Notes: generated by a model not told the origin, from the sequence alone. A stretch of DNA of 64,000 bases from an uncultured Planctomycetia bacterium (GCA_964409365.1 CAYPCX010000002.1:96984-160983); one strand, 5' to 3'; shown: positions 1 to 24,000, numbered from the stretch's first letter. Translations and numbers: made by a program.

Positions 1-50
1 ACAGCACGCTAAGCCTGCGGCCCGCGACCGATAACCTGGCTGATTTCATA

Positions 51-3000
51 ATGTACCTCGGAGGGGAGTTCTACAGGTACAGGGATGAGGACGGGACGCA
101 TATAGTGATCTTCGACGGCGAAGAATACGAAGCCGTCCAGAGCGAAGTGGACGAGGATATATTCCTGGTCCAGATAGGTGATGAGAAGATATTGCAGCTC
201 CTCTTCGACGACGGCCAGCCCTTCCTGCGCGATACCGCGAGCGCCATAAGCGAGAGCATACCGATGGGCGAGGCCCTGGAGATGTACAGGACGGACCTAA
301 TTACCGGAGAAGAACTGGACGGCACGGCGTCATATCTCCGCGTGATGGAGAACCGGGATGCCATGGACATACCGGAACAGCTTATTACCGTGAACACCGG
401 TTCCTACGTTGCCCAGGTGACCATACAGTACGACGAGGTGACGGGCACGTTCGGCCTGGCGGAGGGGCATAGCGCCAGGGTGAACGCCGGCACGAAAGAG
501 GTCGAGGTGCTTGACGGCGAAGATAACGTTATCGGGTCGGAGCTCATACCGAGCCAGGAGTTCGAGGTCTTCAATTCAGGCGGTGAGAATGTCGGGACGG
601 TAACGGTACAGTTCGATACGATCATCGAGGGCGAGACGGCCCTGAGCGCGGGATACACCACCGAACTCGACGGGGAAGGGCGCATCGTGACTTCGAGCGA
701 CGTTTACCCGCACGTTTTCAGGTACTGGGATGACGCCCAGGACGCCAAGGTCGTGGTGACCTCGGAATATGAAGGCGACGACGAAGTGGTCTACATGGAC
801 GGGGTGAGGTTCAGGCTGAGGCTTGACGAGTACGGCCGGGTGTTCATCGCCAAGGAACGCGTGGAAAGCGTACCGTTCTGTGACCAGATACTGACGCTCA
901 ACGATAAACCTTATTACATGACCAGGAACGCCGACGGGACATTCACCTTCGAGGACGCGGAGACCGCGGCTGAATATACCAGCACCTTCGAGTCCAGCGG
1001 CGTCGTGCTGGAACCCGTAGTGGAGATAGCCGGGGTGAAGTATTCCATAATCGTGGACGAGCTTACCGGCAGCGTCACGCTTGACGAAGTGACCCAGAAG
1101 GTATCCTCCGACAAGTTCCACATGATAGAGCTGCTCGAGGAGACTTATACCGTGATGGCTGCCAAGGTGAGCGGTATTTACGGTTTCATCAACGATGGGG
1201 GCGTGACCATATGGAGCAGTATAGGCGAAGACGACGTCAAGCGGCTGCAGCTGGGCGGTGCTAACTATACGCTCGAAGCCGAGATCGGCAGACAGCTCCA
1301 GCAGCCCGCGATAGTGGCCGCCGTGGAAAGGTATGGCGACCTGGACGGAAGCGGCAAGGTGGACACGTTCGATATAGACCAGTTCAATGTCTTCGCCGCG
1401 CATTATAAGGACCTGAACGGCGACGGCGTCGTCAACGCGCTTGACGTGACGAGCCTTGAAAGGCTGATATACATAGAAAGCACCAAGGGCATTACGTCGG
1501 AGAACATAGAGGCGTTCAGGGATAAAGCCGACGTCAACCGCGACCTTGTCGTGAGCGTCAGGGACGCCAACGCTCTCTACAGCGCCATCATGAACCAGCA
1601 CGACCTTGACAAGCAGCAGTACGTAACGCTTTTTACCGACCGGTATGCGCTGGACGAAGAAGCCGGTCAGTTTACTGTCCAGGTGATCGAAGAGGGCCAG
1701 GAAGGACATCTTGTAAGAGGCGACGATACCTATCCCGTGGAATATGACGAACTGACCGGTATCTATTCCACCACGATACAGGCGAGTGAATACACTTTCA
1801 CCGCCGCGGACCTTTACTATACCACGGATGATTTTGACCTCCAGATGATGACGGATATCCTTGCCGATATAGACGTGGGCAAGATATTGCAGCCTTCGCG
1901 GCTCGATCAGGCGGACATCAACAAGAGCGGTTTCGTGACCACGAAAGACTTCACCGACCTCCAGGAAGCGTTCACTCACCTGGAGATATGGACGAAGCAC
2001 ATATACGGTGAGGGTGAGGAAATGCCGGACACGAAGCAGGGGATGGACGCCCTCAAGGGTAACATCATAAGCCGCATGAACCAGATACAGTACGCGGAGA
2101 ACCTGAGACAGCAGTATGAGATAACGTCCGTCAAGATAGACCGCGCCAACCTGGACGGCGACGATGACGTGGGCTATGACGACAGGGCCATGCTGCTGTA
2201 TTCCCTTAACGAGTACCCGTTCCTGCGATTCTATGCGGACATGAACCAGAACGCCGCTTTGGATTACGGCGACGTGGAGATATTCGAGAACGCCGTTACC
2301 GACGCCCTGATGACCGATACGCCGCAGCCCGAGTTCATGCGCAACGTCGACATCAACGGCGACGGCATATTCAACCTGCTTGATGTGGAGACCATTACCA
2401 GGGCGCTCAGGTATTACGTCAGCATGGACGCGGATGATGACGTGGACGCGGAAGACATTACGCGTATAACCGAGATAAGGGACTACGTGGACCTGGCGGT
2501 CACTCAGCAGTACGAACTCCTTTTCGCCAGGAGGACCGGCACCAGGAGCTCGCATTACGCCGACCAGAAAGTAAGGTTCAACGGCGAGGATTACTTCGTC
2601 TCCATCACCGATGAAGGCAGGTTCGTGTTCTATGACGGCAAAGAGAATATTTACAGGTCTTACATAGGCCTGGATTTCGTGGAGATAGAAGGTGTTATAG
2701 CCGACGTCTTCCTCGACGAGGACGGCAGGATCGTCCTGGAGGAAAAACACGACCAGGGTGATCCTTACATGGAGAGCGAGCACCTGGCGGACGAAGTGAT
2801 CGACCTCGGTGGAGTATTGTACGATATTACCCATGACCATGAAGAAGGGACAATTACCATAAAGATAACCGGCGGGGAGGATGTCATCATTGATAACCTC
2901 GACCGCGCCTTAAGCCAGACCATAGAGATAGACGGGGCCGGGTACGTGGCGTACACGGAAAGCGGCGATATAGACGGAGAGCTCATACTTGTCCTGGCCG

Positions 3001-6000
3001 CGGATGCCAGCTCCAGGATATCGGACCAGGTCATAGGGTTTGAAGGGGTGATCTACAAGGTGACCTGTAACGCCGATGGTACTTACACCTTCGAAGGCGA
3101 ACTGGAAACAAAGACGAGTTTTGCCGGAGATAACAGGGTGATGCTCGGCGGCGTTGTGTACGATATCCGCGAGAACCTGTTCAACGGCCGCGTCACGCTG
3201 GTGGAATCCTACATGACGAGCAGCGATATCTGCAGCCAGGTCATCGAAGCCGACGGTAAAACCTACGAGGTCGCGGCCAACCTTAATGGCACCTATACCT
3301 TCCGCGAGATAGAAGGCGTCGTTCCGACCGGTGTAACGGCGACCAGCAGCATCGAGAAAAAAGAACGGACCCAGGACAACGTGCCGTATTACCTGCAGAC
3401 GGAACACACCGTTACGCTTACAGGTGAAGAAGAAATAGAAAGGGTGTTCGATATAGAACGCGATTATGAGACGGGTAAGATAAAACTCGTCGAGCAGTAC
3501 CAGACCCTGGAATCGAGGTACGACCCGCTGACCGGCAAAGAAGAGCTCCTGGTCTATTACAAGAAGTCGACGGGCTATAACAGGTTCGAGTGGGAGGAAG
3601 TGGCCCTTTCGGTAAGCTTCAGCGCCGCCGGCATCTTCACTATCGAAGGCCTGATCAAAGAAATTGAAAGTGACGCTTATGGCAACATAACCATCGCCTA
3701 TGGCACCGGCGCCAACTCGTTCACGCAGTCTTACTACTTGAGACCCAGCGAGGACGAAGAGAGGATAGAGGGCGATTTCAAGATCGCCTTTGACGCCGAA
3801 ACGGGACACATAGAACTTACTGAGACGCACAAGACGAGCGCCACGCTTCTCGGCCAGCTTATAGAGGTCGATGATGTGCCCTACGAGGTGCTGAGGAACG
3901 CCGACGGGAGCATAACCTTCAGGGACATCGTGTACGAATCCAGGAGATACACATCGAATCCCGTACTGAACAAGGTCAATATAGAAGGGCATATATATGA
4001 TATCATCCTCAGCCCCTATACCCAGGAGATCCGTCTCGAGGAAGAACATACCGGGGTGAGCCGGCATCTTGCCGACGGCCAGATAGAAATGGAGGGCGAG
4101 GTGTTCTACGTGTTCGAGAATTCGGACGGCAGTTTCACTCTCTCCGACGTGATCGATCTCGAGGACCCGAACGCGGGAACGGTGACCATAGGCCCCGATA
4201 ACGAGTCATTCATGGAAGTTGGCGGGTTTGTGTACGACGCTTCCATCATTTTCAGGACCGAAAGCGGTATAGCCGACGTTAACGATGACGGCCTCATAAA
4301 TTCCGCGGACAAGGAAGACCTGCTCTACGCGGTCAGCAGGATGGGCGCGGTGGATATCACCGGCGACGACTATGTGGACCAGAGCGATATGGACAGGATG
4401 AAGGCCATAATTTCCGGCATTGCGCAGGGCGAGCTCCTCGATCCAATGGAATATTACCGCGTGGACATGAACGCCAACGGCGTCCTCGACGAGGAAGACT
4501 GGCAGATAATAGAGGAAGCGTTCGCCAGGATATACCTCGACGGCGACCTTAATACCGACGGCAGAATAGACTACCTTGACTGGGAAGAGCTGGTCACGAC
4601 GCACGGCACGGCGGGCGGCTACGAAGGCGTGTATACCACTATTTCTGCCCCGGCCAGGGGATACAGCGGCGAGCCGCTCTTTGAAAGGTCGGACATATAC
4701 AGAGTTCTGGAGATAGAGGAGTTCATGGAGCTCGGCGTCGGTTATTACATGCCGGAAGAGCTGGGCATCTACAGCGGCGAGTTTACCGTGTATACCGCGA
4801 CCAGTCCGGAGCTGGTCGGTACGTTCGACATCGCCGGGGATTATTCGACCGACGGCTCGGTCATTCCCGACGGTATGGTCAGCAGGAAGGATTTCAATTA
4901 CATGGACGCGATAGTGTCCAACATCTACAAGTACGACATAAGCGGTGATTCTATCCTGGACGCGGATGACCTCCCGGCCTGGGATTCGATAAAGGACTAC
5001 TGGGACCTGGCGAAGCGTATTTCCGACGAGGATATAAGTACAGCCAACCTGACCGGCGATATCGATACTGCGACCGGCGAAGAGATAGTCGACGGAGCGG
5101 ACCTTGTCCGTTACCAGGATATAAGCGGGTACAACCCGGTGAACCAGACCTTCAGGAATTTCGACGTCAATTCGGACGGCAAGGTCACCATGCTCGACGT
5201 AAGCAACATAAGCAGGGTATATAACCTTAACCAGATCATCGACGCCTGGATACTCCCGTTCGAGGTGGACAAGTTCGACGTTGACTGGAGGCCGACCACC
5301 GAAGCTACCACGGCTTCCGTAGCCCAGCACATAGACGAGATGGAACAGCTTCTCCTGGAGCCGGTGGGCGACGGCATTTACACCACCTCGTGGGCGGACG
5401 TCAACCTCGACGGCGCAATAGACGGGAAAGACCTTGCCATCTATGAGACGCTTTATCTCGATTATATTAATAATTCCGGCGTGCCGGAGAAGCTTGATAT
5501 CGCCGAACCGTCCGGCGTCTATTCGACGGACAAACAGAGGATCCTGAACGTCGCCGATTACCTGGAAGTCCTGGACCTTTACGGTGACACGGTACTTTAT
5601 GACATGAGAGGCATTCTGGCAATGGATGCCATGCTGGACGATCTTGAAGAAGCGGTCATACAGGCGGGCATTTACACCACTCTCGGCGAGTACACCACCG
5701 GCAGGACGTATCTCGGGGATGTCCTGGACATCCTCCAGCAGGCGGACTTCGATTCGGACGGCGCCGTCAGCGCGGTCGACCTGGCCAGGCTCTATGACGC
5801 TTACGAGGCGGAGCTCCTCAGGGCGGAGCTCGGCATCACGGAAAAAGCAGACCTTTACGTCGACGGGGACACGGACGGCTACGCCGATTACGATATTAAC
5901 AAGGACGGGGAGATAGACAATAAGGACCTCGCGGACCTTGAAGCGGCTTACGAGAATTTTGAATCTTATGACATCGCCAGCTACTCAGCAACTGATGTCA

Positions 6001-9000
6001 ACGGCGACGGCCAGGTCGATTCGGACGATCTGGCCGTACAGCCGGACGGCGTGGTGGACGAAGCCGACCTGGCGTACCTGGACCTGGCCCGGGAATACCA
6101 GAGACTCGATTTCACGATAGAGGACCGCGATATACTCGCCGCGAACATTATCAGGGATTTCTACGCCAACGGTTCGGTAAAAGTGGACGAGGACGATTAC
6201 CAGGCGATAGCGGCTAATATGGCTTACGCCAGGGACGTGAACGCCGATATGACGGCGAGCGCCCTGATGGAACTGACGCCGGCGGAATACGAGAGACTTA
6301 TAACCATAGTGAACGCCGGCGGCATGACGGAAGACGACGTGGAAGCCCAGGGGCTTACCGGGCTGGACCTGAACGGTGACGGGCACCTGACGGTGGACGA
6401 CCTGGTGGTCACGGAGGGCGGCGTCGATTACCGGGACGCTTTCGCGGTAGAAGCGGCGTACGATATCCTCACGCAGCACGGGTTCAGCCTCGACGACGTC
6501 CATAAGGTAGACCTTGATTACGACGGGTTCATAACCAGCGATGACATAGAGCTCTTCGAGAAGGTCCTTGGATCGAGTGACCTCCTCGACCCGGCGGTCC
6601 AGCAGGCCGTGGAATCGCTCGGCAACATACAGTTCCAGGGCACGCGCATACCGGTAAGATGGATGAAGCGGACCGACATAAATGAGGACAACCTGATAGA
6701 TACCGACGACCTGGACCTTCTTGAAAGGGCCATGGACTATCACGCGGACGTGAACCTGGACGGCGTCGTGGACGGGAATGATATCGAGGCGATACAGGCG
6801 GTGATAGATTCCGGCGTGATGGGATTCACCGCGGATGAAGTGATAGCCGCCGACCTGAACGAGGACAGCAACGTCGATACGACGGACCTTGCCCTTCTCA
6901 AGGAAGCCGTGGCGCGCGTGTCCAATTATGACATGGACGGAGACGGCCTGGTGAACGGCCTGGACCTCCTGGTGATATTTGACATACTGGGCACCGATCC
7001 GGTCGAGGTCATGGGCGCCCAGAACGAAGAGGCGGAGGCGCTCCTGCAGACGATATACAGCACGGAGTACAAGGAAGACGCCGACGCCTGTGTCGACGCC
7101 ATAGAAGAGCTGATGACCGCTATGGAAAAGCTCAGGCTGCATTCAGCTGACATGGCCGGTCTCATGGGCGCGGATGACCCGCGTAAGCAGGAGATAACTG
7201 ACGGGATAGACGAGAAGTGGCTGGAGCTGTCCGGTATTTACAGCACGGCGGTGCAGGAAGCTTCTACGAAACCGGAAAGACAGCTCACCGACCTGGAAAC
7301 GAGCGCCCTGTACGTGCAGACGATAACCGGCCTTAAGACGGAGACCGGTTCCGCCCGGCAGGCGTCCGGGGCCGAGCATCTGTTGGAAGTGGCCCAGAAC
7401 CTGCTGGGAGAGATCGAGACCATCCGTACCGATATTCACAATACGGGTACGCAGGAAGAGATAGACCAGGTGGACGCCGATTACACGACCGCCAGCGCGG
7501 ATGTCGCGATAATAGAAGGCCTGGTAGGGGATTATAATACGGCCGAAAGCGAAATGGGCTCTATCCTTTCCGCGGCCGAAGGACTTATCGCCGAGCTGGG
7601 ATCCTATCTGGCCCTGGTGGAGGAAAGCAATGACGCGGGTCTTATCCTGGCGCTTGAAGGCCTGGCTTCAGAGGCGGAATACGACATGTTCGTGTATCTT
7701 GTCGGCGCGGCGGAGCTCAAGGCCGAATATTCGCAGAATACAGTGATCGCGGGCAAGGAAACGGAAGTCAACGCCGCCTCGGCCAGCGCGGTATCGCTCC
7801 TCGAAAGGATAAGAGAAGAAGCGGTAAGGGCGGTCATAGCGGGTCTGGATACGACCGTAAATGCAGAAGGCGAGCTTGAGGTCGAGGACGGCTTCTACCC
7901 GACAAACGAGCTCGACCTGGCCGCGATCGCTTCCAAATTCCTGGCCGGCCAGACGCTCACGCTCGAGGCGATAGCGAAAGAAGAAGAGTTCGTGGAATTT
8001 CTCTACGGCGCCTGCTTCACGACGGGACACACCGCCGAAGAGATGACAGCCGCCCTCAACAAACTTTTCGGGACGGGCGATTACACGACCAGGATGGAAA
8101 GGGAACACCTGGCGGAGGAAGTGCTTACCTCGGCGGAATTCACCGCGCAGACGATGGATAATTACGACTTCATGACCATCGTTTACGAGGTGTATCTTGC
8201 CGAAGAGGCCGAATACGGCGACATAATAGCGACTGTTTTGGACCTCAATACCGGCGGCATAACCCGTGAAGAGGTGATAGAAGCATACACCGTTACCGTC
8301 ACAGCGAGAAGGTTCATAGAAGCGGCGGAACGTGATATAACCGACGCCGAGTATGTCCGGATGGTATGCAAGACGTTCATACCGGGAGAATACACCACCG
8401 GCCAGGTGTACGACTGGGTACAGGAGATCAAAGATGAAGTAAAGACCAGGGAAGAAGTCGTGTTGGAGATCTCCGGCATAACGGATCCTGGCGATGACCT
8501 CCATTACGACATATTGAACGCGGCGGACCTGGAGATACTGGATTCCGGATGGAAGGTGTTAAGCGAGAACGATTCCGTCCTGGCGGATGCCGGGCTCGAG
8601 ACGGCAGACTACGCCGCGGAACTTATCGGAATAGACAATACCACGGTAGCGGGAGAAGGCGCGTTCGACGTCGACGTATATGTCGAGACCGTAAGACGCA
8701 TCCTTTCCTCGGAGGCGGAACTCGCCGAAAGCCGGCTGGAAGCGGTCAGCGAAGAGGCCGCCGCTTACAGTTACGCTTCCGCCGTCTATACCAGCGTGTC
8801 CGAACGGTGCAGCCAGGTCGAAGGGGCATATGACATGGTCGAAGAACTCTTCCCAGCCGTAAGCGGCATCTACACGAGCCAGGACCACGACCTCGAGGGG
8901 ACGATGGAGGGATGCTACAAGATATTCAAGCTGAACCAGCTTATCACTTCGGCGGTCGAAGAGAACAGGCAGCAGATAGCGCCGGAAGTGTACGAAGCGC

Positions 9001-12000
9001 TGGCCGGATCTTTCTTCAAGATACAGGACATGGCCCTCAGGAGAGCCACCGACGCGGTGCTTGGTATAATTCCGGGGACTTGCGGTATATCCGATGAGAG
9101 GAAACTCGAACTTAAGGCGCTTTACGACGCGATACTGGACGGAAGAGCGGAAAGCGCCGGCTTCTACGCCGAGGCGGGTATAGGCGCCGACCAGGGTGCC
9201 TCGAGAAGCGATGAGGCGGCCGCACTCGCGGGTGCCGTCTCCGGTATAGAAGCGGATATGAGCCTGACCGTGAGCGCCGGCGAGGCCGGGGCCCTGGAAA
9301 GGATAGCGGAAGACGCCAAGGCGCTTCTTGAAGAATATTCCGCCCAGCTTGAGGCCGCCGCCGAGGGCCTGGATGACAACTATTATATGCTTGAGAACAA
9401 GGCCGATGTGGATACCGGCCTTGCCCAGATAAGCGCCGACCTGGATGATATAGAAGCGAGCGCGCTGGATATCTCCAAGGACGAATCCAATATAGTATCG
9501 CTGAGAGAGAGAACGGTCGCGATGAGGGACATGATCCTCGAGCTTGGCGAGAGGCTGGACGCTTCGGGATCGCTGGACGAAAAGAAAGCGCTTCTTGTCA
9601 CGCTGAATGCCGCGCTGGATGACCTGGTCGCGTACAACAGCAGCGTAAGCTCCGTGGCGATAAAATACCCGAACAATCGTGCGGTACTTACGGAATTGCG
9701 TGAGACCGCGACGATCACAGAGGAAATAGGATCGCTTATACGCGAAGCCGAAAAGGACGTAAGGATCGAGGAAGCTGTCCAGTCCAAGGGCGCGGCGATG
9801 AAAGAGGCCGCCCTCCGCGCGGCGGAGATGCTCCAGCATATCAGGGACCTCCTCGGCGAGTTCAGCCCGCAGGACACCGAAGTGACAGCCCTTATGGTGG
9901 ATATCGCCGAAGGCCTGATGGCAAGGATCGCCGAGGCGAGGGGTGAGATCCACCTTGTGGCGCTTTCCGCGCAGGATGACGCAGACATGGCGGCTAACGT
10001 CGCGGAAGTGGACGACATCTCGGCGAATACGGCCGAACCGCTCATGCGTTACATCTACACGACGCAGCAGGAGATGGCGGCGATATCTTCCGAAGGCGCT
10101 TCGTTCGTCACGCTCAGTAAGGACCTTGCCGCCGCCGTAAGAAAGCTGCGCGATATAAGCGTTACCACGGACGATGCCGAAACCCTCATGAGGCTGGCCG
10201 AGGCGGCGGAGGAAATAACCGCGGACCTCCTCGACCTTAACGGCAGGTGCCAGGCCATGGTCGCAGGCGGCTACACGTCGCAGGAATGGCTGGACAACGC
10301 GCTTGAGGTGAGCAAGAACGCCGATGTCGCGGGATACCGGAACGAGATGTTCGAAGAAGCATATACGGCCGCGGTAGTGATGATGAAAGAGACGCTTTCC
10401 ACTTATAACGAAGAATTGTCCGATATAGTAAATGAGACCGATGTTGAGAACCTCGATGAAGCCAGGGGACTTTTGATGGCCGCGGACCAGATCGTAGAGC
10501 GCCTCGTCGGTCTGACCGGTCAGGCCGTCGATGCCGGCAGGCAGCTTCCCGGTGATACGGATATGATAGGCAAAGTGGAAGAGGTCAAAGCCGAGCTCAG
10601 GGACGCTTTCGAGAAACTGGACACGATAAAAGAGAACGTGCTCTACCGGGACGGGACCGGCTCCGATCTGACCTCGTTCATCGACAGGTTGAACGTCGTC
10701 GGTGACGCCATGGATGAACTCGAGGTCATCGCCGCGAGCTGCGCGTTCGACGAAGACGGATTGCGGGACCTCCTCGCGCTCAGGGCCATGGCGGTCGCCG
10801 CGTATGACGAATACGTCATGATAGAAGAGGTGGCAAGCCAGATCGTCGCCGATAATCCGGAGGATGAAGAAACGCTGGAGCCCAGGCTGACGACCATACG
10901 GACCTTTGCGGATCCGCTGTCGGGAGGCGTGGATAACATAGAGGACACTATAGATGCGGCCCTGGTCGTGTTAAAGAGCGGCGGGTTCACCACGTTCTAT
11001 GCTGCGGCCACCGACTACGCCGATCTTTCCGAGAGGGCCGATACTATCGCCCGCTCCGTGACCGGAGGTTCGACGCTGGGCGAGCTGGAAAAGGAAGAAT
11101 GCGTCGCCCAGCTGGCTGTAAGAACGGCAGGCGAGATGCTCACGACCGCGACGACCGCCGCGGACGTCTTCAGTGAAGATTTTGAGTTCGGCACGGCGGA
11201 CTACTGGGACAGCATCTACACAACCGACGGGTCTCCGGGAGTGACCTCGCAGGCCCCGGCCAATCCCGGGATATTCGGCGGGGAATATATCCTTGAACTC
11301 AGGGGTGGCTCTTCTTACGCGATCAAGGACCTGGGCGACCTGACCGATGCCGCCAAGGTCACGGTAAGCTTCTACGGGGCGGTCTCCAGCCTGGATTACA
11401 GTTACTATAATCCGGAATACATGGACATGGATTTCTATCACCACGGCCAGTGGGAAGAGGGCATGGTCCGGTTCACCAGGAGCGACAACGACGCCGGGTA
11501 CATCCTCAAGACGTTCGAAGTGCCGGAAGAATGGCTCTCAAGCGACAACAAGATACGGTTCGCCGCCAGGGCGTCCAGCAACGGGGATTATTTCTACGTT
11601 GATAATGTCATGGTCTCCTCGAGCGCCGGACCAGGCGCGGCGTCCGTGGAAGAGATAAGCGGGACGGTCGTATCCTGCATAGAACATCTCGGGGAAGCGC
11701 GCGATACGCGCCTAGAGCTTGAAGCCGCGAGTAACACTCAGGTCCTGATGGACCTTGCCGCGAGCGACAGGGAGTCCGCGGACAAAGCGTACCTCATCGC
11801 GAATTCATCCGAGGAGATCGAGAAGGCGGTCCACCTGGCCGGCGTGATCGAGCAGGCCAAAGACGACCTTGTCGTTCTCAAGGCGATAGCCGTTGCAACC
11901 GGCGTGTTCACCCAGGATGATCTGGATATACTTGACGATTATATAGCAGATACCGAGGACGACCTCCAGGCGCTTCTCGATGATCTCCTCACGGGGAGGA

Positions 12001-15000
12001 CCGTGATGAACGGCGACTCGGCTATCACGCAGCTGGTATCCGCGCAGTCGGTCCTTGATGATGTGGATGAGAGAATAGAACTTCCGTGGAAACAGACGGA
12101 ACTGGAAGGATTCAAGCTAGCCGCGAAGCATCTCGTCGAAGAAGCTGAAGCGGACCTCGCAGAAGCCTACCTGAAAGCCGCCGAACATACCACGAGCGCC
12201 GTGGCGGAGACAATAGCGCGTCTCGCGCAGGATATCGTCAGCGACGGGTACGCTACGGCAGGAAAGATAGCCGCCCGGGCGGACCTGGCGCTGAACAGGA
12301 AGGACCGCAATTCTTCTCTCCGTGACAGGACGGAGGCGTGCAAAGAGCTGGCAAGGGTAGCCGGCATCCTGATAGGCGAGTACACCACCAGTCCGCAGCA
12401 TGGCAGGACCCTCATCTTCCTGGCCGAAAGCGCGAAGGAAGAAGCGGCCCTGGCCGCGCTTGAGGCGATAGAGACGTTCCGCACGGCGCCGCTTAATGAA
12501 ACGATCAAGGCGAACGCCCTGGAGATAAACGCGCTGAGCCGGGAAACGGCCGAGAAAGAAGCTTCCTCTAAGGAGAAGTTCGACGCGGCGTGGCTGGCCG
12601 AGATCGTACTTGAAGAGGGCGGCGATTTCACCATGACCGTGGCCGACGGTATATACACCACGGAAGTCTACAACCCGGCGGACGGCCATCTCCTTGAGTT
12701 CATCATGGTCAACAGGCAGCTGGTGCGGGTGATAGACACGGATAGTGCTGAGACAATAGAGGTAAATATTAATAATACTATGTTTAATATTAATACGGAT
12801 GGAAGTTCCGCCTGGAGGATCGAGAAAGAGGACGGCAGCGTCATAAGGCTGGTGGACAGGTACACCGGCCGCGCGACCATGCCCGGCCACGAAGACGAAC
12901 CGGAATGGTCGTGGAAGATCATGGATTTCGTGCTGGACCCGGCGAACCTGGACCTCAGCGAACTGGCGGAGGATATTACCGACTCGTTCCGCGAATTCAA
13001 GGCCGCCTCGCGGATAACCGAAGCCGTAAGTGATTTCTTCACCGCCGTGGCCGAGGCATACCAGTATTCCCTCAAGGAGACCCCGACACCGGAGGAAAGG
13101 GATGAGATCCAGTATTACATGCCGTTCATCCAGATGCTGCTCGTTGTTAACCCGCTCATCCTCGTGGCGGACGGTACCAGCACGATATGCTCCTGGCTGA
13201 TGTCGCAGGGCGCGGCGATAACCAACTGCGCCGTGAAGAGCCTCCTTGAGTATTTCACAGGGGAAGGCGTTACTATCGAGAAAGAACGCCTGGCCGCCGC
13301 GACGGCTATTTCAGATATCACGGCCGGCCTTGTGACCCCGGCCTCGGTCAGCGAAATAGAGACGAGTTTCTTCACCCTTAAGGCGGCGGCCGCGGCGAAC
13401 GATATCACGCTCCACGGCGTGAGGACGGGACTTGACGCCCTGGCTGAAAGGGACATGCCGGTCATCGCGGTGATCGAAGAGGCGTTCCAGAACCACGTGG
13501 TCCTGGTAAAATCGGTTACCACGACCGTGACCTACGTGTCGGACGAAATAGAGATCGTGGAAACGGCGGAAGAGTTCAGCGAGAAGTTCCTGGGCGTCGT
13601 GCTCGCTTCGGAAGAGGCGGACGAGGATGAAGGCGAATCGGCCCTGACCGATGAGGAGCTTCTGGATATCGCCGGGTCACTGGCCAACGTCCTCGAGACA
13701 AAGACAACGAATCTCGTGGAATACCTGACGTTCGCCAGGGACGAGATGCTGGACATCAAGCAGGCTACCACCCGCGCGATCAATTCCCAGCAGGCCACGG
13801 AAGCGAAGAACATAGCCGAAGCCATACTTTTCGAGATAGAACAGGACGCGGATTACGCGTCAAGCGAAGCGGCGAAGGAGAAGAACGCGGATAATGCCGT
13901 TATACAAAGCAATGCCGAAAAAGCGCAGGCGCTCAAGCAGGAAGCCCAGGCGATCTACGCCGAGATCTCGGCGATACGCGACGAGATAGCCCAGCTTGAA
14001 GCCCAGGCGCGCGGCTATGTCGCCTTCGCCAGGATCAGCCGGGACATGCTCGAGAGCATGCTCGCCGACACAGAGGACGCGGTGAGCCTCGTGTCTCTCG
14101 GGGTAACCTGCCTGGACAGCATCAATGACGTGAAAGACAAGATAGACGAATACTGCACGCTTTATAATTACAACACCACGCTCCTGGGTTACGCCACGGA
14201 AGTGGCCGGTTACAAGACCCGCGGCGAGGAAATAGTCCAGCTTCTCCGGAGCGCCTCGGACGAAGCCGTCAACGCGCGTTTCCTTAGCGAATCCGAGTAC
14301 AACCGTGCGGATGTTAACGGCGACGGCGCGGTGGACGAAAATGATATCGCCGATTTCGAGGCAGCCCTTAAGAGGATAACGGACCTGGACTCGGACGGCA
14401 AGATCACGGAAGACGACCTCAACAGGCTCAAGACGCTCCTGAGCTATATAGATTACAACTACTTCATGTCCAGGAGCGAGATATTGAAGGCCGATATAGA
14501 CGGTAACGGCACTATAGATAACGCGGACGCTTCGCTTCTTTCCGACCTGCAGAGCTATCGCGTGGATGTCAACGAAGACGGTTACGTTAACGAGCTGGAC
14601 GTCCTGGCCCTGGAAGAGGCTATAGAGAACAGTATCGCCAGCTACGGTACGGAACTCACGCGCAAGGAATACTATTACCACCCGGACAAGACAGGAGAGG
14701 ACGACAGGACCTATTACTCGCAGATGCCCCAGCACCAGGTCGATATAGCGTACGAAGTGGGCGTAACGGATGAATATGTGGGCCTGACCGGGGCCACCAT
14801 CACGTTCACTTTCAGCAATGTCGTGGACGCGACGGGGCTTATTGCCGGATATGAAGCCCAGCTCAATTTTGAGACCGGAGCCGTCGATATAATCAGGGTG
14901 TCCGATGAAGGCGTTGTCGGCACGCATGCCATAGCGGATCAGGTAGTGGACATATACGCCGAAGGGGAGAAGATAGGCGAAGCCACGGTGGATTACTTCG

Positions 15001-18000
15001 ACGGCATCTATACTTCCACCATACCCGGGGAGTATATCAGGCCGTATCTGAGCGAGGACAGGGACGAGATAATAACGGGTATTACCGGTCCCGACACGTT
15101 CGTGGAAGCAACTGAAGAAGCGAGGAATCTGGCCGTTACCTCGATAAGCGCCGAATCCGCCAGGGTGTTCGCCGAGATGACCGCGGAGTTCGCGGCAAGG
15201 GCCGAACAGTCCGCGCAGTTCTTTATCGCGAAGGGCGGGGAAACCGCGCATTACGAGCTTGCCATCGACAGGGTCCGGGAGCTTGCCAGGGAAGCGGAGG
15301 CCGCGGCGGACAAACTTGCCGCCGAAAGCGGAGTGGACGAACTCAAGACGCTCCTGGACCATCTCGTCGTCGAGACCGAGACCATGCTGGTGAACTTGAG
15401 GGCCAACGAGGACGTTGACCGCGACGGGACGCTGGATACAGAGGACGAGAACGCTCTTGCTGCGGCTGATAACACCACCTGGACGGCGTTCGGTTCATAT
15501 GATATCGACTTGGACGGCAACATGGACGTGGCTGAAGATTTCGACCATGACGGCGTGCTGGATTACTTTGACGACCTTAACGAGGACGGCACCCCGGACA
15601 TCGGAGAAGATGTTAATTATAACGGTGTTCTCGATGACGGGGAAGATATCGACGGTGACGATGAGATAGACCCGACCGAAGACCTGAACGGGAACGGCCA
15701 GTTCGACGAGCCCCTTGAAGACATGGACTCGGACGGCAATTTTGACGACCAGAACGAACTGCGCGGGTTCTCGGACCTTTCCGGTATCAGGTCGCAGCTC
15801 ATGTGCATACAGGCCAGTTACACGACGCTGAAGGATGCGGAAGAGAACAATTACAACCTGAAAGCCCTGGCCGTCGATAAACTCTCGAAGAGCGTCTCGG
15901 AGCTCATGAAGGCCACTACTGCCCATGAAGCCCAGGCATTATATGAAGCCATGATCAGCACGCCGACGGTGAATGACGTTTTGCGCGAAGGCATTGATCC
16001 CGCCGAGTTCCTGGAATATATGAGGGAAACGGATACGGCCATAGACGACCTCCTGATATCCTATTTCGATAACTTCGTGCTGGATACCGACGGCCTCGAG
16101 CTCCGGGTGGAGATAGAACAGCTTGAAGCGGAGATGGAGACCGCGTACCTGGAAGCCATCGGTTCGATAAAAGCGGAAGCGACCGCGCTCGTTGAAAGCG
16201 CGGAAGAGGCGGCTATATTCTCCGTCATGGATACGGAGAAGGTGCTTGAGATCTACGCGGGAGGCGAATTGATCGGCACCGTTACCGTCGAGGACGGCGC
16301 TATTACGGCGCAGAACCTCGGTTACAACTGCCTCGCGAGCATCGATTCGGGAGGCATGCTCAGCATCAGCGACCAGGACGGGACACTTATCTCGCAGGGC
16401 AGCGTTATGAGTTACATCTCCGAAGACGATCTTAAGGCTGAGATCTCCAGGGCCCAGGATAACCGCAAGACCATAAACGAGAGCCGCGACACGCTGATAA
16501 TGATGATGATGAGCACGTCCAATTCCGACGTAACTGTCGCCATAGGCAACTGCTTCAGTATGGTGGACGAGATGCTCACGGATATCAACAATTTTATCCT
16601 TGAGCTTATCGGCACGGTCTCGACGGCCAGGGGCGCCTCGTATGAAGAAAAAGCCAGGCTTTACCTGAATATCGCCGCCGCCGCGGCCGTAGAAGTGGAA
16701 ACCTTGAGGCAGGATATCATCCAGACCGAATACAGCACGATGACCAACAAGGAAGCCGTCCAGGACCTTAAAGCGCGCCTGGCCGCTCTCCAGGCCAAGA
16801 GGAACGAGATACTGGTAGCGATGGACGGGGTCACAGGGGCGTACTTCTCGGTAGACGAGGCCAGCCGGGTAGACTTATCCAGCATGCTGGGGAGCGTCGG
16901 GTACATGCTGGACTATGCTATGGAGACGATAGTGGTGGTAAGGGACACGCTTGTCCTTTATGAAGGCGCCCTGGTAGATGAAGACCTTGACGATGACGGC
17001 CGTCTCGACGTGGACGAAGACCTCGACAATGATGCCAGGCTTGACCTGTACATCGAGGATCTCGACGGCGACGGGCATCTCGACGGGTTCGAGGAAGACG
17101 TCGACGGGGACCGCAACCTGGATATAAACGAGGATCTCACGCGTAACGGCGCCTGGGACGTGACAGAGGACCTCAACGCCGACGGCGACAGGTGGTTCGA
17201 CGTGAACGAGGACATAAATGCCGACGGTACTTTTGATACCGGCGAGGACCTCGATCATGACGGGAATTTCGATAACGTCGATGAACAGGCGCTAGCCGCT
17301 AGTGGGTATACCACCGTAGCCGGGGTTTATACTGACGAATGGTACGCGCACGAGCCGGGTTGTGACCTGGACGATGACGGCCGCATGGACCTCGGCACGG
17401 AAGACATTGACGATGATGACGTGTTCGATCTTACCGAGGACCTGGACGGCGATGACAATTTTGATATCACTGACGAAGAAGCCCTGGCCGCGGGCGGTTA
17501 CACGACCACGACATTGGCCAATAACGAGTATACCACGGTGTGGTACGCGCACGAGCCCGATTGCGATATCGATGACGATGGTTTCATGGACCTCGGCATA
17601 GAGGATATAGACTCGGACGGCAACTTCGACGACCTGTTCGAGGACATAGACGGAGACGGCAAGATGGACCTCGTGAACGAGAAAGATTTCGATAACGACG
17701 GCGTGATGGATATCGTTCCCGAACTGGATCTTAACGACGATGCCGTGCCGGATAACGAGATCGAGGTTGAAGTGGAGGGCGTTGTATACATCGTTCTTGC
17801 CGAGATAGACGTCGACGGGGACAACCGTCTCGACACGGTCAACGAAGATATAGACGGCGATGAAAAGTTCGACAGGGGAGAAGATCTCGACTGGGACCTC
17901 GCTTATGACGCCACCGAAGACCTTGACGGCGACACCGTATTCGATACCGGTGAGGATATAGACCACGACCGCAATTTCGATATCATAAATGAAGCCGCGC

Positions 18001-21000
18001 TGGCCGCTGCCTGGTATACCACGATCGCGGGCCAGTACACGAATGTATGGCACGCGCACGAGCCCGACTGTGACGTTGATGACGACGGCAACATGGACCT
18101 CGGCATAGAGGATATAGACGGGGACGGGGAGTTCGACCTCACGGAGGACCTCAACGCCGACAACAATTTTGATACAGGCGAGGATATCGATCACGACGGT
18201 AATTTTGATACGGGCGAGGACACCGACCACGACGGCGAGCTTGACGGCGGCGAGGACCTTGACGGTGATGGTGAGCTCGACCTCACCGAGGACCTTGACG
18301 GCGACGGGAACTTCGATATCACGGATGAGGAGGCGCTGGCCGCTGCCTGGTATACCACGGTCGCCGGTCAGTATACGAATGTGTGGTACGCGCACGAGCC
18401 CGACTGCGACATAGATGACGATGGTCATATGGACCTCGGCATAGAGGATATAGACTCGGACGGTAGGTTCGACACGACGAACGAGGATATAAGCTCGGAC
18501 GGTATAATGCAGTCCACCGAGGACCTCGACGGTGACGAGAACTTCGATATCGTGGATGAAGAAGCGCTGGCCAGGGCGGGGTACACCACGGCCGGCGGCT
18601 CTTACACCACCGTCTGGATCGCGCACGAAAGCGGCTGCGACCCGGACAATGACGGCCGCATGGACCTCGGTATAGAGGATATAGATAATGATTCGAACTT
18701 CGATGAGGTGTTCGAGGACCTCGACCTTGACAGGCATTTTGACAGCGCGAACGAGGATATTGACGAGGATACCACGTTCGACGAATTCAACGAACTGGCG
18801 ATAGCGGGCGCCGGTTACACGACGCTGAGCAACGATTTCACCACTGTCTGGCACGCTCATGAGCCTGATTGCGACCTGGATGACGACGGTTACATGGACA
18901 GGGGAGAGGACAAGAACGCCAACGGCGCCTTCGAGCTGGACGAAGACATCGACAACGACGGCCACCTCGACGTGAACGAGGACATTGACGGAGACGGCCG
19001 CCTTGACGTCGACGAGGATATTAACGGCAACGGCGTGCTGGACAGTTTCGTCGACTTCTATACCGAAGCCACGGGTATATACACGACGTTCACCGACCTT
19101 ACCTGGGACGCGGGCGACCTGGAAAGCATACAGGAGGCAAGAAGGGTCATCTTCGACGGCCTTGACAGGCTGGTCGTCATTTACGACATCATAGACCCGG
19201 CACAGCAGGCCCAGAGGGATAACGTGGATTCGTTCATCGATTACGGTGAGGACCTCCTCGAAACGCTGGGTGATGACGCGCGGGATATCTATATCTCGGA
19301 AGCCCAGGACAATAACGACGCGCTCTTCGATGAAGTGGAAGAGATTTACTCCGCGGCGGTCGCTTTTCTTGACAGGAGCTACACGGATATTACCATGGCC
19401 CGGGAGATGAGAAAAGCCGCCCTTGACGCGGTAGACCAGATCCTCATGCTCGAGAACCTGCCGAGCCTGGGAGCTTCATACAGTACGTTCAAGGAGACCG
19501 CCGCCGGTTACAGGCATGACCTGGAAGAGAGGCTCGATGACATAGAAGACGTCATAGACGCCACCCTTGAGAACAAAGCGGGTACGTACTACCAGGATAA
19601 GATGACCGAGTATAATGACCTTCTCCTCCAGCTGCGCGAGAAGAAACAGGAATACGAAGAAAAATACGCCAACAAGGCGGACGACACGCTGTACAAGCTC
19701 CTGAAGAGGCTGGAACAGGCGTCCGGCCTTATACTTTCCGACGCCGAAGGTACGAGCGCGGTCGCCGCGATCGCCGCCAGTGAGGAAGAATACGGCCTGG
19801 TCCAGCTCCTGGAAGGCGTATACCTGCAGGAGACCAAGGTCGCGGCCTGCGATGACCTCATAAGCGCCGAGATCGAGGTAGCCAGGTCGATATTGAGGGG
19901 CGAAGACGTAGACGATGACAACGTCCTGGATGTTGACGAGAAAGCCCTGGCTGAAGCGGGATACACTACGCAGGGCGGCAGCGGCGAATATACGACAGTA
20001 TGGATCGCGCACGATCCGGGTTGCGACATGGATGACGACGGGCACATGGATAAAGAGGAAGACCTCGACGGTGACGGTGAGATAGACAGCTTCATGGACC
20101 TCCTGGACCAGAACCCGGATATGACCGCCCTTGTCGACCAGATTGAAGGATGCGCGCAGGCATCTGAATATGCCCTGACAAAAGCCCAGGCCATATCGCT
20201 GGGTAATCCTAATAATGAGCACCTGAAGAATAAGGTAAGTGCCCTCGCGCGGGAAGTGGCCGATCTCAGGAACGCGGCCGATCTCATGAAGGAAGTCCAG
20301 ACGGTCGTGGAAAATACCGCGCGCGTGGACGACCTTTCCGACGCCATAGACGTTTACGAGTCGTTCATGACAACTACGGTCACGAAAGCCGCCACAGCGG
20401 ACGATACCGACAAGGAAGCGTATCTCTCGGCGCTTGATATGGCGGAAGAGGGCCTGGAAGAAGCCCAGGATACCGTCCTGAGCGATTCCATGGAGGCCAG
20501 CGACGCGACCGACCAGATCGTGGTGATAGCCAGCGCTATCAACGAATATGTGGGACTCTTCGATTCGTTATTCACCTCGCAGGACCTGGCCGACATGGTG
20601 AACTTTGTCAGGGGAAGGGCCTCGGCGGCCGTTATAAGCGCCCAAAGCGCCTCTTCTAGGGCTATAGAGTATACCCTTGACCCGGACGCGGCGGAGACCG
20701 AAGAGCTTGAGGCATGGGGCGACCTTCTGAACGCCAGGTCCGATATATCGACCAGCTGGGACGCGTATGAACAGGACACCGGAGACCCTGTCCTGGCGCT
20801 CGATGATTACGCGGAAGCCGTCCTGGATTATGAGGAAGCTTTCTATACCATCCACTCGGCGAGGCCCGGCACTTCCGATTACACGACCGCGATGAACGAT
20901 ATCGCCGGCCTTGTCAGCCAGGAAAGGAATTTGGCGAAGGAACTCGCCAATATCCAGGAGACACTGACGCAGGGCATCCTCCCGGTCCTGAGAGAGGAGT

Positions 21001-24000
21001 ATAACGAGTTGTACGCGGCCCTGGCGGAGGGGGATGAGCTCCTTGAGAAGGAGAGAGCACAGAGGCTGGAGCTCCTTTCCCTGGAAAGCGCCCTCGAACG
21101 CGCGGAGAACAGGGTGGTGATACTCGAGGCCAAGGAAGAAGCCGCCGAAAAGGCGCAGGAAGACCTGCAGGAGGCGCTCAACAAGATGGTACAGCTTTAC
21201 CGGGAGGCGACAGCGGCTTCCAAGGAACTCGAGAAAGCTGTCACGCTGGGCGGCGATACGGGGTATGAATACAGCGGCGGTATAACTTCCGAGGATGACA
21301 GGTGGGAAGCCAATGTCGTTTACTGGTCTTATGTCCTGGACAACGCGCTGGAATCCAGCCCGATAGACAGGAACGCGGAGGCCGCCAGTGATTTCTCCGA
21401 CCTCGCCAGCCAGCTCGTGACCATCGCCGACGCCGCCATCCAGCAGGCCCAGCTTTTACAGGTGGAGGTCAATAACGCCCAGGCGGAATATACCGAGGTC
21501 CGCCAGGAACTTGACAGCGCCCAGCTTGATATGGAGAACCTGCGTATCGATACCTCCGAGGCGAAGATGCAGTACAGCGCTATAGAAGACGCTATTTCCA
21601 GCGCCGAGGCGATAACGTTGAAGCAGTTCGTGAAATGCCAGGAACTCATGAGCGAGTACTGGGACACCTATCTTGACTATGAATTTGCATGGAACAGCTG
21701 GTGGGGCACGAAGCGCGAACTAAACCAGAAACAGGCGCTTGTGACCGAGGACGTGGCCAAAGAAGAAAAACTCCGGGCGAGGAGCGATGCCGAGCAGGAT
21801 ATGGACGACGCCTGGGAAGCCTATGATATCTTCAAGGCCCAGGCCGATATGGAGAACCCGGCGGATGTCGCCCAACTGGAAATTTATTATAACGAATACC
21901 TGGCCAAGAAAGCGATATGGCAGGCGGCCGGCCGTGATTATGATAATTATATAGCGGCCAGGGAAGATGACGCTGACCTGGAGGATAAACTGGAGGCGCT
22001 CGACGCCGCGTACAGCACGATGACCAATGCTTTGGACACGCACCAGGATCGCAACCAGAACTTCACGTCCGACCTTAATAACACCGCGGGTCTCAGGAAG
22101 GACTACCTTACCCTCAAGGAAAGGGCGCGCGAGATAAGGGAGGAGTACAACGCTCGCCAGAACGCCGGCGCGATGGCCGACGATACCGCTACCGCCCTCG
22201 CCGAGATCACCACCGACGCGGACGCCGTTATCGCCGTGATGAATGACACCGCCGATTTCATAAGCGACAAGCTCGGCCAGATGCGGCAGATATCTTCGGA
22301 AGTCACGGAGATCGCCAATGCCAGCGATGACAGCGCCGGCCTCAGCATGCCGTCCTATGTCAGGGATTCATACAGCAAGGTCCAGTACACCGAACAGATA
22401 GTTGCTTCCTATGAGGCGAAGGTGTATGAGCAGATGCAGGTCGTGGCGGAAGCCTACAGCGCCATGGAACAGAAGAGGAAGGACATGCTCGACGCGGAGA
22501 TCTACGTGAAGGTGACCGAAGCGGAGCTGGACAAGGCCATAGATGAAAGCAGGGACGAGACCGGCAAGGCTAACATGAACGACCCGCGGGTCAAGAACGC
22601 GGAAAGCATACTGGAGCAGGCCCAGGAGGATTACAGCGACGCCCGGGAAGCGTTCGAGGATGCAGAGACGGCCTACGAAGAAGCTTTGGACGAATATAAT
22701 TGCAGATTGGCAGACCTGGAAGTCGCTTACGGCGACTTAAGCGGCGATCCCGATGCCGACGACGACTGGATAGAGTGGGATCCGGAAACTTCACCCAGGG
22801 ACCGATTCGGTTACGGCACCGGCGGCGCTCTGGCGGACTGCCTGGCGTCTTTTGATCCCGACTGGTGGTGGGGTGACCACAGGCCGGACCTGTACGGGAC
22901 CTATACGGACGGGACGACCCCGTGGAACACGTATGTGAAGGACGAGGATTTCCCGTGGGACAAGGAGTGGCTGGACGACCAGAAGAAAGAGAGATACATG
23001 CAGTGGAAGAAGGCCCTGGACGTCAGGTACGCTTACCAGGTCAGCGAACGCAATTACGAGACCGTGAAGAACATGGCGCTCGTCGATTACGCGCGTTCGG
23101 TGGATGACGCTGTCAGCGTGGTCGAAGGAGTAAGATCCGATCTCGAATCGGCTCTCGCGGATTACCGCCAGGCGATAGAGGAAGAGGTCCTGGCCAGGAA
23201 CCGCTTGGAACGCTTGACCAAGGTGATAACCGAAGGGGATTTCACGGGCGCGGGGACCGAAGGCGCGATATTCCTGGCCGAGCTCAACAGCCAGAAAGAC
23301 GCGGCCCAGGAAGCGGTGGACGAGGCAAAGAAGAGAGTGGACATCCTTGAAGAATATATCATAGGGCAGGGAGGGCTCGAAGATGTTTATAACGAGACGC
23401 AGGACAGGCTCTTCGAAGAAGCGCGGGATTATTGCCTGGACGCCACGTTCTTCGACGAATGGCTCGATCCGGAAAGCCTCTCCGACGGCATGTTCGAGGA
23501 CCTGAAGTCCCTTGTCGGCCAGGTCTTTGACCGCGATACCGAAGGCGATATGTCCAGCGCAGCGGCCGAAGTGATGAAGATGGTCTACAAGGCGGAAGGG
23601 GTCGCCCTGAAACTGCAGGAGATCATACACGCGAAGGTGACCGGAGCGGAAGCAAAGTCCACCGTGCAGGCCATAACCTCGCAGCTGAACGACCTGAAGG
23701 ACGGCATCAATTCCGCATGCGCCGCGTTCGTGAATTTCTGTTCCACCATGGAAATCGAGTACGATTCCGCCAGGGCGGAATGGGAAGCGGTTAAAGATGT
23801 GGGCGATGAGGGCGACGCCGACATAAGCGACATGGAAGACAAACTCGCCAAACGCTCCAAATACCTGATAATGAAAGGCGTGAACGATTTTGGCCAGGAA
23901 GCCAAGATCTACATGGAACAGATCGAGGAAAAGCTTAAAGGCTCCGATCCCAACGCCGTTATTAACCGTCTGGACGAGCTCATGCAGATACTGGCGAAAG

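Follow-up and report, generated by a model that had tools for sequence, protein, structure and literature searches.

Do the many calcium-binding loops in the long N-terminal part of a giant bacterial protein dock partner proteins, or do they merely fold and stiffen a fibre with calcium? The question is raised by a stretch of 64,000 nt (the window) from an uncultured Planctomycetia bacterium (GCA_964409365.1, CAYPCX010000002.1:96984-160983), nearly the whole of which is filled by one open reading frame (ORF). An original prediction made from its sequence had called about 26 dockerin/EF-hand-like Ca2+-binding loops at nt 1335-6995, and the results reported here bear on what such loops do. Residues (aa) are counted from the ATG at nt 51. 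As judged from the sequence, the protein is a Dockerin-type giant, and its loop region is made up of dockerin-type calcium sites which, like the spacers between them, are conserved.

The loops were first sought with a rule of six features (D1, [DNS]3, [DNS]5, G6, a hydrophobic residue at position 8 and an acidic residue at position 12). The first 2,400 residues contain 16 perfect loops (6/6 features), versus 0.07 +/- 0.26 (maximum 1) in 500 composition-preserving shuffles. The relaxed rule (5/6 features) gave 27 matches versus 1.97 expected; 4-5 of these 27 are a beta-hairpin, NADGTFTF, and not loops. With a 24-residue loop+helix hidden Markov model (HMM), 22 clear copies were found at aa 430-2315 (nt 1338-6995), together with about 5-9 degenerate copies, including those at aa ~701, 792, 1603, 1673, 1997, 2036 and 2062. 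The predicted count of about 26 was thus fair, and so were its coordinates. Four more clear copies lie outside the region, at aa 4754-4860. Across the 26 clear copies, the consensus reads D-[VLI]-N-G-D-G-x-[VI]-D-x-x-D-[LVI]-x-x-[LIF]-E-x-A-[IVL]. All 26 have D at position 1, N/D/T/S at position 3, D/N/S at position 5 and D at position 12, and positions 10 and 11 are heterogeneous.

Over its 1,886 aa the segment has a net charge of -278, and it contains just 2 Cys; its 12.9% Asp and 8.4% Glu would fit an artefact in which DxNxDG-like strings arise by chance in a spurious ORF or in low-complexity sequence rich in Asp, Gly and Asn. The probability of such an artefact is, however, negligible in view of the shuffles, of the conserved positions of the loops in orthologues of 35-55% identity, of the lack of DNA tandem repeats in nt 1335-6995 and of the colinearity of the ORF over 4,650 aa with P0001, a protein from an independent metagenome-assembled genome (MAG). 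Chance and composition as the source of the loops are ruled out by the shuffles, the in-register orthologue loops and this colinearity. The lack of tandem repeats also rules out a recent DNA duplication, and the loops are therefore old, diverged copies.

A Pfam scan, the check that had been proposed for these loops, matched Dockerin_1 (PF00404) strongly, and the EF-hand families stayed under their own cut-offs in all 7 sub-windows of the loop region. On aa 1-2500 Dockerin_1 reached 106.9 bits (E 5.8e-31) in 8 stretches, for a gathering score of 22.9. Among the 251-aa sub-windows, 6 of 7 exceeded this score (27.5-51.8 bits), and the seventh, aa 1980-2230, stayed below it (13.7 bits), with the EF-hand families at 17-21 bits, likewise sub-cut-off. 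Five loop pairs, 35-40 residues apart, align end to end with the profile (454+494, 730+767, 1435+1472, 1948+1982 and 2233+2268). A dockerin comprises two loop+helix segments of ~22 residues with starts ~33-37 residues apart, and this arrangement is seen for 730/767, 1435/1472, 1948/1982, 2233/2268 and 4778/4815. The pair 454/494 is also dockerin-like, though its spacing is 40, and neighbours spaced by 24-27 residues and isolated loops do not have the dockerin spacing. The whole of the Clostridium thermocellum CelS dockerin (1DAQ) is covered by its alignment with 2233+2268 (E 5e-5). Together with the ligand pattern and the conservation in orthologues described below, this profile match points to loops of the dockerin/EF-hand-like calcium-binding type, as had been predicted. 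The adjacent pairs quoted in the original prediction do exist (aa 430/454 and 1982/1997), but the pairs that correspond to the dockerin profile are those ~35-40 residues apart and not these 24-residue neighbours.

Loops of this kind could also be calmodulin-like calcium sensors, i.e. regulatory Ca2+ switches that alter the conformation of the giant. Weak EF-hand_1, EF-hand_5, EF-hand_6 and EF-hand_7 matches occur in the same stretches, and calmodulins are among the weak PDB matches. EF-hand_7 marginally passed on the whole 2,500-aa piece (31.8 bits versus a cut-off of 30), as did EF-hand_1 at aa 4777-4792, outside the region (31.1 bits versus 25.4). However, Asp12 is present in 26/26 loops in place of the bidentate Glu of canonical EF-hands, and no site in the loop region combines Glu12 with an EF-hand profile above its cut-off. 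Dockerin_1 outscores all EF-hand families in 6 of the 7 sub-windows, and the loop spacings of 24-27 and 35-37 differ from those of EF-hand pairs. In addition, dockerin-type modules occur in secreted proteins, where Ca2+ is always high. We consider such a sensor highly improbable.

The closely spaced neighbours have an explanation of their own. A unit of ~115 residues recurs at aa 1402-1522, 2202-2317 and 4746-4861, with more divergent copies at ~701-812 and 1606-1727; for the copy near aa 701-812 the module HMM matched at 674-750 and 762-820. Its order is loop-helix, loop-helix, a linker of ~11 residues, loop-helix, loop-helix, with loop spacings of ~25/36/26. The neighbours 24-27 residues apart are, by this reading of the sequence, additional loop-helix units joined without a linker around a dockerin-like central pair. 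The four-loop HMM found 194 near-full-length copies in 98 library proteins, with up to 13 per protein, and the carriers that were looked up are mostly Omnitrophota. When a 54-copy profile of the module was compared with PDB sequences, the best match was the double-dockerin 8X39/8X3A (E 5e-12), followed by the dockerins 4FL4_A, 2CCL_B and 1OHZ_B (~4e-9), always via the central loop pair. An AlphaFold2 (AF2) model of a single module (loops 2209-2294) had a mean confidence (pLDDT) of 86.9, and the exiting helix begins at loop position 10 in 4/4 loops, which is how EF-hand and dockerin loops behave.

Relatives were recovered by an exhaustive HMMER search of the library with aa 1395-2330, which returned 98 proteins at E <= 1e-3 and 11 at E <= 1e-30. 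The best ones are fragments of 35-55% identity; those looked up are all labelled as partial and fill nearly entire short contigs, and NCBI names several of them "dockerin type I domain-containing protein". Of those looked up, the six closest (P0001-P0003, P0005, P0006 and P0008) each carry an annotation as a MAG protein from Candidatus Omnitrophota/Omnitrophica. Weaker matches, sharing the four-loop module only, are mostly from Omnitrophota, with single cases in Uhrbacteria and Thermoplasmatota. No related loci were found when aa 1-420 were compared with genome and metagenome contig collections. Word-filtered protein searches with aa 1-2400 and aa 15851-17050, in which the limit of 8,000 candidates was saturated, also gave no match, and the exhaustive HMMER search was the sole source of relatives.

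Conservation was followed in an alignment of the window protein with seven orthologous library fragments over aa 1395-2330 (five were looked up, all from Omnitrophota MAGs). All 16 loops of this segment are in register across the seven fragments. Identity is 85% at ligand and Gly positions versus 43% in non-loop columns, and 99% of the residues at loop positions 1, 3, 5 and 12 are capable of donating an oxygen. By position, identity is 0.98 at position 1, 0.92 at position 5, 1.00 at position 12 and 0.62-0.69 at the helix-core positions 16 and 19. It is low at positions 7 (0.13), 10 (0.11), 11 (0.28), 14 (0.28), 17 (0.34) and 18 (0.36). Type I dockerins reportedly recognise their cohesin through positions 10, 11, 17 and 18. 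In C. thermocellum dockerins, positions 10-11 are occupied by Ser-Thr. This pair is lacking in the window loops, and the four recognition positions are among the least conserved in the orthologues (0.11-0.36). Since the calcium sites and the helix core are kept and the recognition positions vary, selection has preserved no fixed recognition surface.

This variability bears directly on true cohesin-dockerin docking, in which the dockerin pairs would be multivalent plugs for cohesin-bearing partners encoded elsewhere in the genome, tethering the giant to a surface anchor or recruiting enzymes onto it, like an inside-out cellulosome. Docking is favoured by the Dockerin_1 scores over the cut-off and by alignments that run end to end with functional dockerins and the double-dockerin 8X39, and a wide range of specificities could result from the variety of residues at positions 10, 11, 17 and 18. 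Proteins with multi-dockerin modules, from double to septuple, are moreover known in cellulosomal bacteria (PMC12484212). However, these modules lie inside the protein in fused units of four loops instead of being appended to the C-terminus of enzymes, and the positions through which docking would occur are those that orthologues retain least. Within the 64 kb, Cohesin (PF00963) was unmatched both in the giant, scanned in 5000- and 1000-aa pieces, and in the neighbouring ORF2, and a PDB sequence search of aa 7301-17300 gave no match. The cohesin passages of two Omnitrophota preprints (bioRxiv 10.1101/2023.11.21.568195 and 10.64898/2026.06.07.730766) report no cohesin partner. Classical cohesin docking is possible but unsupported, and we regard docking as an unlikely role for these pairs.

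The position of the loops within the protein also has to be considered. The original prediction had placed them in the first 2,300 residues, at the distal end, which could not be established. The ATG-initiated span of the giant ORF is 51..55961 (+), or 18,636 codons, but the frame holds no stop codon in nt 3-50, upstream of this ATG, and the 16 codons that precede it (STLSLRPATDNLADFI) align with residues 1347-1362 of the orthologue P0001 (STIVLRPATRKVADSV). The ATG at nt 51 is therefore not the real start, and the gene is longer than 18,636 codons. Residues 1363-5992 of P0001 are colinear with aa 1-4650 of the window protein (39% identity), so that P0001 has at least 1,362 extra N-terminal residues relative to the window ATG, including four further loops. 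As the left edge of the window cuts the giant ORF, the loop region is a stretch within a long N-terminal part of the protein and does not amount to its first 2,300 residues.

The region is strongly acidic, mostly helical and built of dockerin-type F-hand (calcium loop plus helix) units. With moderate confidence we propose that the loops form a Ca-folded structural or adhesive extracellular scaffold. Each unit, a 12-residue loop followed by a helix, would bind one Ca2+ via Asp1, Asn/Asp3, Asp5, the backbone carbonyl of position 7 and Asp12. The segment is presumably extracellular, on the far side of a C-terminal membrane cluster. At low cytoplasmic Ca2+ the chain would be unfolded or flexible, and it would fold on meeting external Ca2+; indeed, as isolated dockerins are unfolded when Ca2+ is absent, its binding can be expected to drive folding. 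The folded modules would then constitute a rigid, Ca-stabilised helical scaffold, whose variable helix surfaces may contact proteins or attach to the surface of a host or prey.

Several observations weigh against this scaffold or against parts of it. Fast-evolving cohesin specificities would explain the variable helix surfaces just as well. Foldseek comparison of the module model with the PDB gave no significant neighbour (best E 0.44). The AF2 model of aa 1395-2330 (936 aa, from a 7-sequence alignment) had a pLDDT of 40.5 and was unusable, so the geometry of a rod or scaffold stays putative. The true N-terminus and any signal sequence fall outside the window. Pfam matched neither the thrombospondin type 3 (TSP3) family nor TSP3_bac (PF18884) in the giant, and aa 5121-6682, where loops resembling TSP3 are found (see below), were blank at E<=1 in two sampled pieces and at E<=0.05 in 1000-aa pieces. 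Pfam also found no SecA_DEAD in the giant, and no SecA or other NTPase domain was called near a GQGKT motif in its C-terminal part. A bolder proposal is that the four-F-hand unit is a distinct, undescribed Ca-dependent domain which, with the TSP3-like loops, acts as a calcium-driven folding ratchet directing the export of the >15,000-residue N-terminal region, for which no classical secretion signal is seen, no cohesin being involved; this we hold to be rather doubtful. The Ca-folded scaffold remains the reading that we favour. The features on which it draws, and those of the remaining sequence, are collected in Table 1.

Table 1. Location of the predicted features in the window (nt positions; loops are named by their first residue).
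Feature	Position (nt)	Strand	Evidence and remarks
Giant ORF	1..55961	+	>=18,652 codons readable; stop codon 55959-55961; 5' end cut by window edge
Three F-hand motifs, aa 430, 454, 494	1338..1601	+	454+494 Dockerin_1 51.8 bits, aa 452-510, profile 1-53/57
Single F-hand, aa 622	1914..1979	+	Loop+helix HMM; EF-hand_1/5/6 weak, sub-cut-off
Divergent four-loop module: degenerate 701, loops 730+767 (Dockerin_1 pair), degenerate 792	2151..2486	+	Dockerin_1 27.5 bits, aa 728-786
Complete four-F-hand module, loops 1409, 1435, 1472, 1499; spacing 26/37/27	4254..4616	+	Module HMM 87 bits; Dockerin_1 27.6 bits, aa 1435-1488; loops kept in orthologues
Divergent four-loop module, degenerate ~1603, ~1673; clear 1629, 1705	4866..5231	+	Module HMM 31 bits; Dockerin_1 30.2 bits
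Single F-hand, aa 1783	5397..5465	+	Loop+helix HMM; in register in orthologues
Loops 1899, 1948, 1982 and truncated 1997	5745..6089	+	1948+1982 Dockerin_1 36.7 bits, aa 1947-1995
Loops 2036, ~2062 (both degenerate), 2106, 2154	6156..6575	+	Partial module-HMM matches; Dockerin_1 sub-cut-off; 2106 and 2154 kept in orthologues
Complete four-F-hand module, loops 2209, 2233, 2268, 2294; spacing 24/35/26	6654..7001	+	Module HMM 107 bits; Dockerin_1 43.3 bits; modelled by AF2
DUF4214, aa ~2754-2808	8310-8474	+	Pfam 37.1 bits; only other confident Pfam match in N-terminal 4,000 residues
Peptidase C39-like domain, aa 4431-4523	13341..13619	+	Pfam PF03412 24.6 bits vs cut-off 22
Complete four-F-hand module outside region, loops 4754, 4778, 4815, 4839	14286..14633	+	Dockerin_1 55.3 bits; EF-hand_1 31.1 bits; module HMM 99 bits
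Head-to-tail 12-residue D-x-D-x-D-G-x-x-D-x-x-E loops without trailing helix, aa 5121-6682	15411..20096	+	Regular expression; thrombospondin-type-3-like
Hydrophobic cluster, putative membrane-spanning, aa ~15082-15612	45294..46871	+	Kyte-Doolittle scan, heuristic, peak 2.27 at aa 15082
Second large ORF (ORF2), >2,556 aa, off right edge	56331..63998	+	N-terminal hydrophobic segment; Pfam SecA_DEAD 65.3 bits, E 7e-18

The peptidase C39-like domain lies ~220 residues upstream of the four-loop module at aa 4754; for such domains in giant proteins, a role in polypeptide cleavage has been proposed in the literature. Further on, aa 5121-6682 contain ~40 DxDxDGxxDxxE loops, a motif that fits the calcium loops of TSP3 repeats, and the DNA of this stretch has short 36-nt repeats. 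The loops are interleaved with seven copies of "...EEALAAxGYTT...W(Y/H)AHEPxCD", with one Cys each; the AH[ED][PS]xCD motif is found at aa 5766, 5833, 6002, 6114, 6191, 6269 and 6653. The Y-T-T tripeptide occurs 30 times in the giant ORF versus 2.9 expected, mostly in nt 51-21000 of the window, and G-x-Y-T-T 12 times versus 0.2 expected. Conservation of some Y-T-T copies extends to orthologues and to an insertion in P0006 ("EYTTxxGGTW"). This insertion of ~250 residues (P0006 residues ~390-640) is beta-rich, carries three "YxxEYTTAxGGTW" repeats and is located inside the loop equivalent to aa 1982, and individual loops can therefore host inserted domains.

The stretches aa 1-430 and 800-1400 (nt 51-1340 and 2448-4250) are beta-rich, with six copies of a hairpin-like "...G..Y.V....NADG(T/S)(F/Y)TF...". 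They gave no Pfam match and no significant blastp self-similarity, and may form part of the ladder or beta-helical structures reported in Dockerin-type giant proteins. Self-blast of aa 1-1420 and of aa 16500-17900 detected no internal repeats at the thresholds used. The hydrophobic cluster consists of ~8-10 Gly/Ala-rich segments and is followed, ~340 residues further, by the Walker-A-like P-loop motif GQGKT (aa 15950). ORF2 contains acidic low-complexity stretches, and its SecA DEAD-like domain is divergent. As no blastp similarity was found between ORF2 and the C-terminal part of the giant at E<=1e-3, a SecA-like domain within the giant is not confirmed.

How does this protein compare with known calcium-dependent systems? 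Giant adhesins and RTX proteins (MpIBP, LapA/SiiE-type BIg extenders, RTX beta-rolls) are very long, acidic and extracellular, with many Ca2+ sites that hold the chain unfolded while it is in the cell and make it rigid once it has left. The likeness to the window protein is a functional one, inferred by analogy: the folds are unrelated (beta-sandwich or beta-roll versus helical F-hands), and the adhesins and RTX proteins use type I secretion.

Type I dockerins (PF00404; CelS 1DAQ, Xyn10B 1OHZ_B) are much closer. They share with the window pairs the two loop-helix segments ~35 residues apart, the pattern D-[VIL]-N-G-D-G-x-[VI]-[DN]-x-x-D with Asp12, and an alignment over their full length. However, a cellulosomal dockerin is a single C-terminal appendage, whereas the window modules are internal and present in many copies, with extra F-hands that flank the central pair at zero linker distance. 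The window loops also differ in their recognition positions, with no Ser-Thr pair and with residues that vary among orthologues, and no cohesin partner was found within the window. The C. thermocellum double-dockerin dDoc_0689 (8X39/8X3A; Chen et al. 2024, as cited in PMC12484212) likewise holds four Ca loops in one compact tandem unit. There, the four loops are two complete dockerins over ~140 residues, each of which aligns to the central pair of the window module (profile 31-88). In the window module the four loops occupy ~115 residues with a spacing of 24/35/26, and the Foldseek comparison with 8X39 is not significant (E 1.7, TM 0.17).

The closest system is found in Omnitrophota, ultra-small and probably predatory or episymbiotic bacteria whose giant proteins are largely unannotated. 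In its account of these giants, West-Roberts et al. 2023 (bioRxiv 10.1101/2023.11.21.568195) separates Archaeovorins from "Dockerin-type giant proteins". The latter are described there as having many Dockerin/EF-hand and TSP3 repeats, most of the N-terminal part without membrane segments and, in one case, C39 peptidase-like domains, and are proposed to attach to the surface of a host or prey. A 2026 preprint (bioRxiv 10.64898/2026.06.07.730766) counts 21 long Omnitrophota proteins that contain PF00404, the maximum being 15 copies in a single protein, and has a PF00404+PF18884 cluster. A related arrangement occurs in an Omnitrophota MAG (L001; GCA_015231405.1, JADGBR010000015.1, 15-31046), where four same-strand ORFs (3,026, 3,985, 942 and 1,013 aa) with Dockerin_1, TSP3_bac or Laminin_G_3 matches directly precede a 14,271-aa product; this series could represent a single dockerin-type giant gene that frameshifts or gene calling have broken up.

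The window protein differs from the published class in some respects. It is shorter than the published giants (>18,652 aa with its 5' end missing, versus at least 30,000 aa), its 12-residue loops are unmatched by TSP3_bac, SecA_DEAD is in the adjoining ORF and not inside the giant, and the part of the giant inside the window yielded no Discoidin, DUF1080 or CBM35-like ladder units. The likenesses are a giant single ORF, many Dockerin/EF-hand-like repeats in a long N-terminal part without membrane segments, TSP3-like Ca repeats, a C39 peptidase-like domain, putative membrane segments near the C-terminus and a SecA-related sequence at the locus; the nearest relatives looked up are all Omnitrophota MAG proteins. 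The predicted protein fits the Dockerin-type giant class, with the taxon taken from its relatives, TSP3 recognised by motif only and SecA_DEAD in the neighbour. The class itself was already known, and the current picture of the family is unchanged. What is added is modest: every loop is conserved in position, loops combine into a four-loop module, and the cohesin-recognition positions are not conserved. Dockerin-type giants are known mainly from fragmented assemblies, and the window supplies >18,600 contiguous residues of one of them, through to the stop codon, in which the Ca loops are not a drifting repeat array but individually conserved landmarks, many of them set in a recurrent four-loop module.

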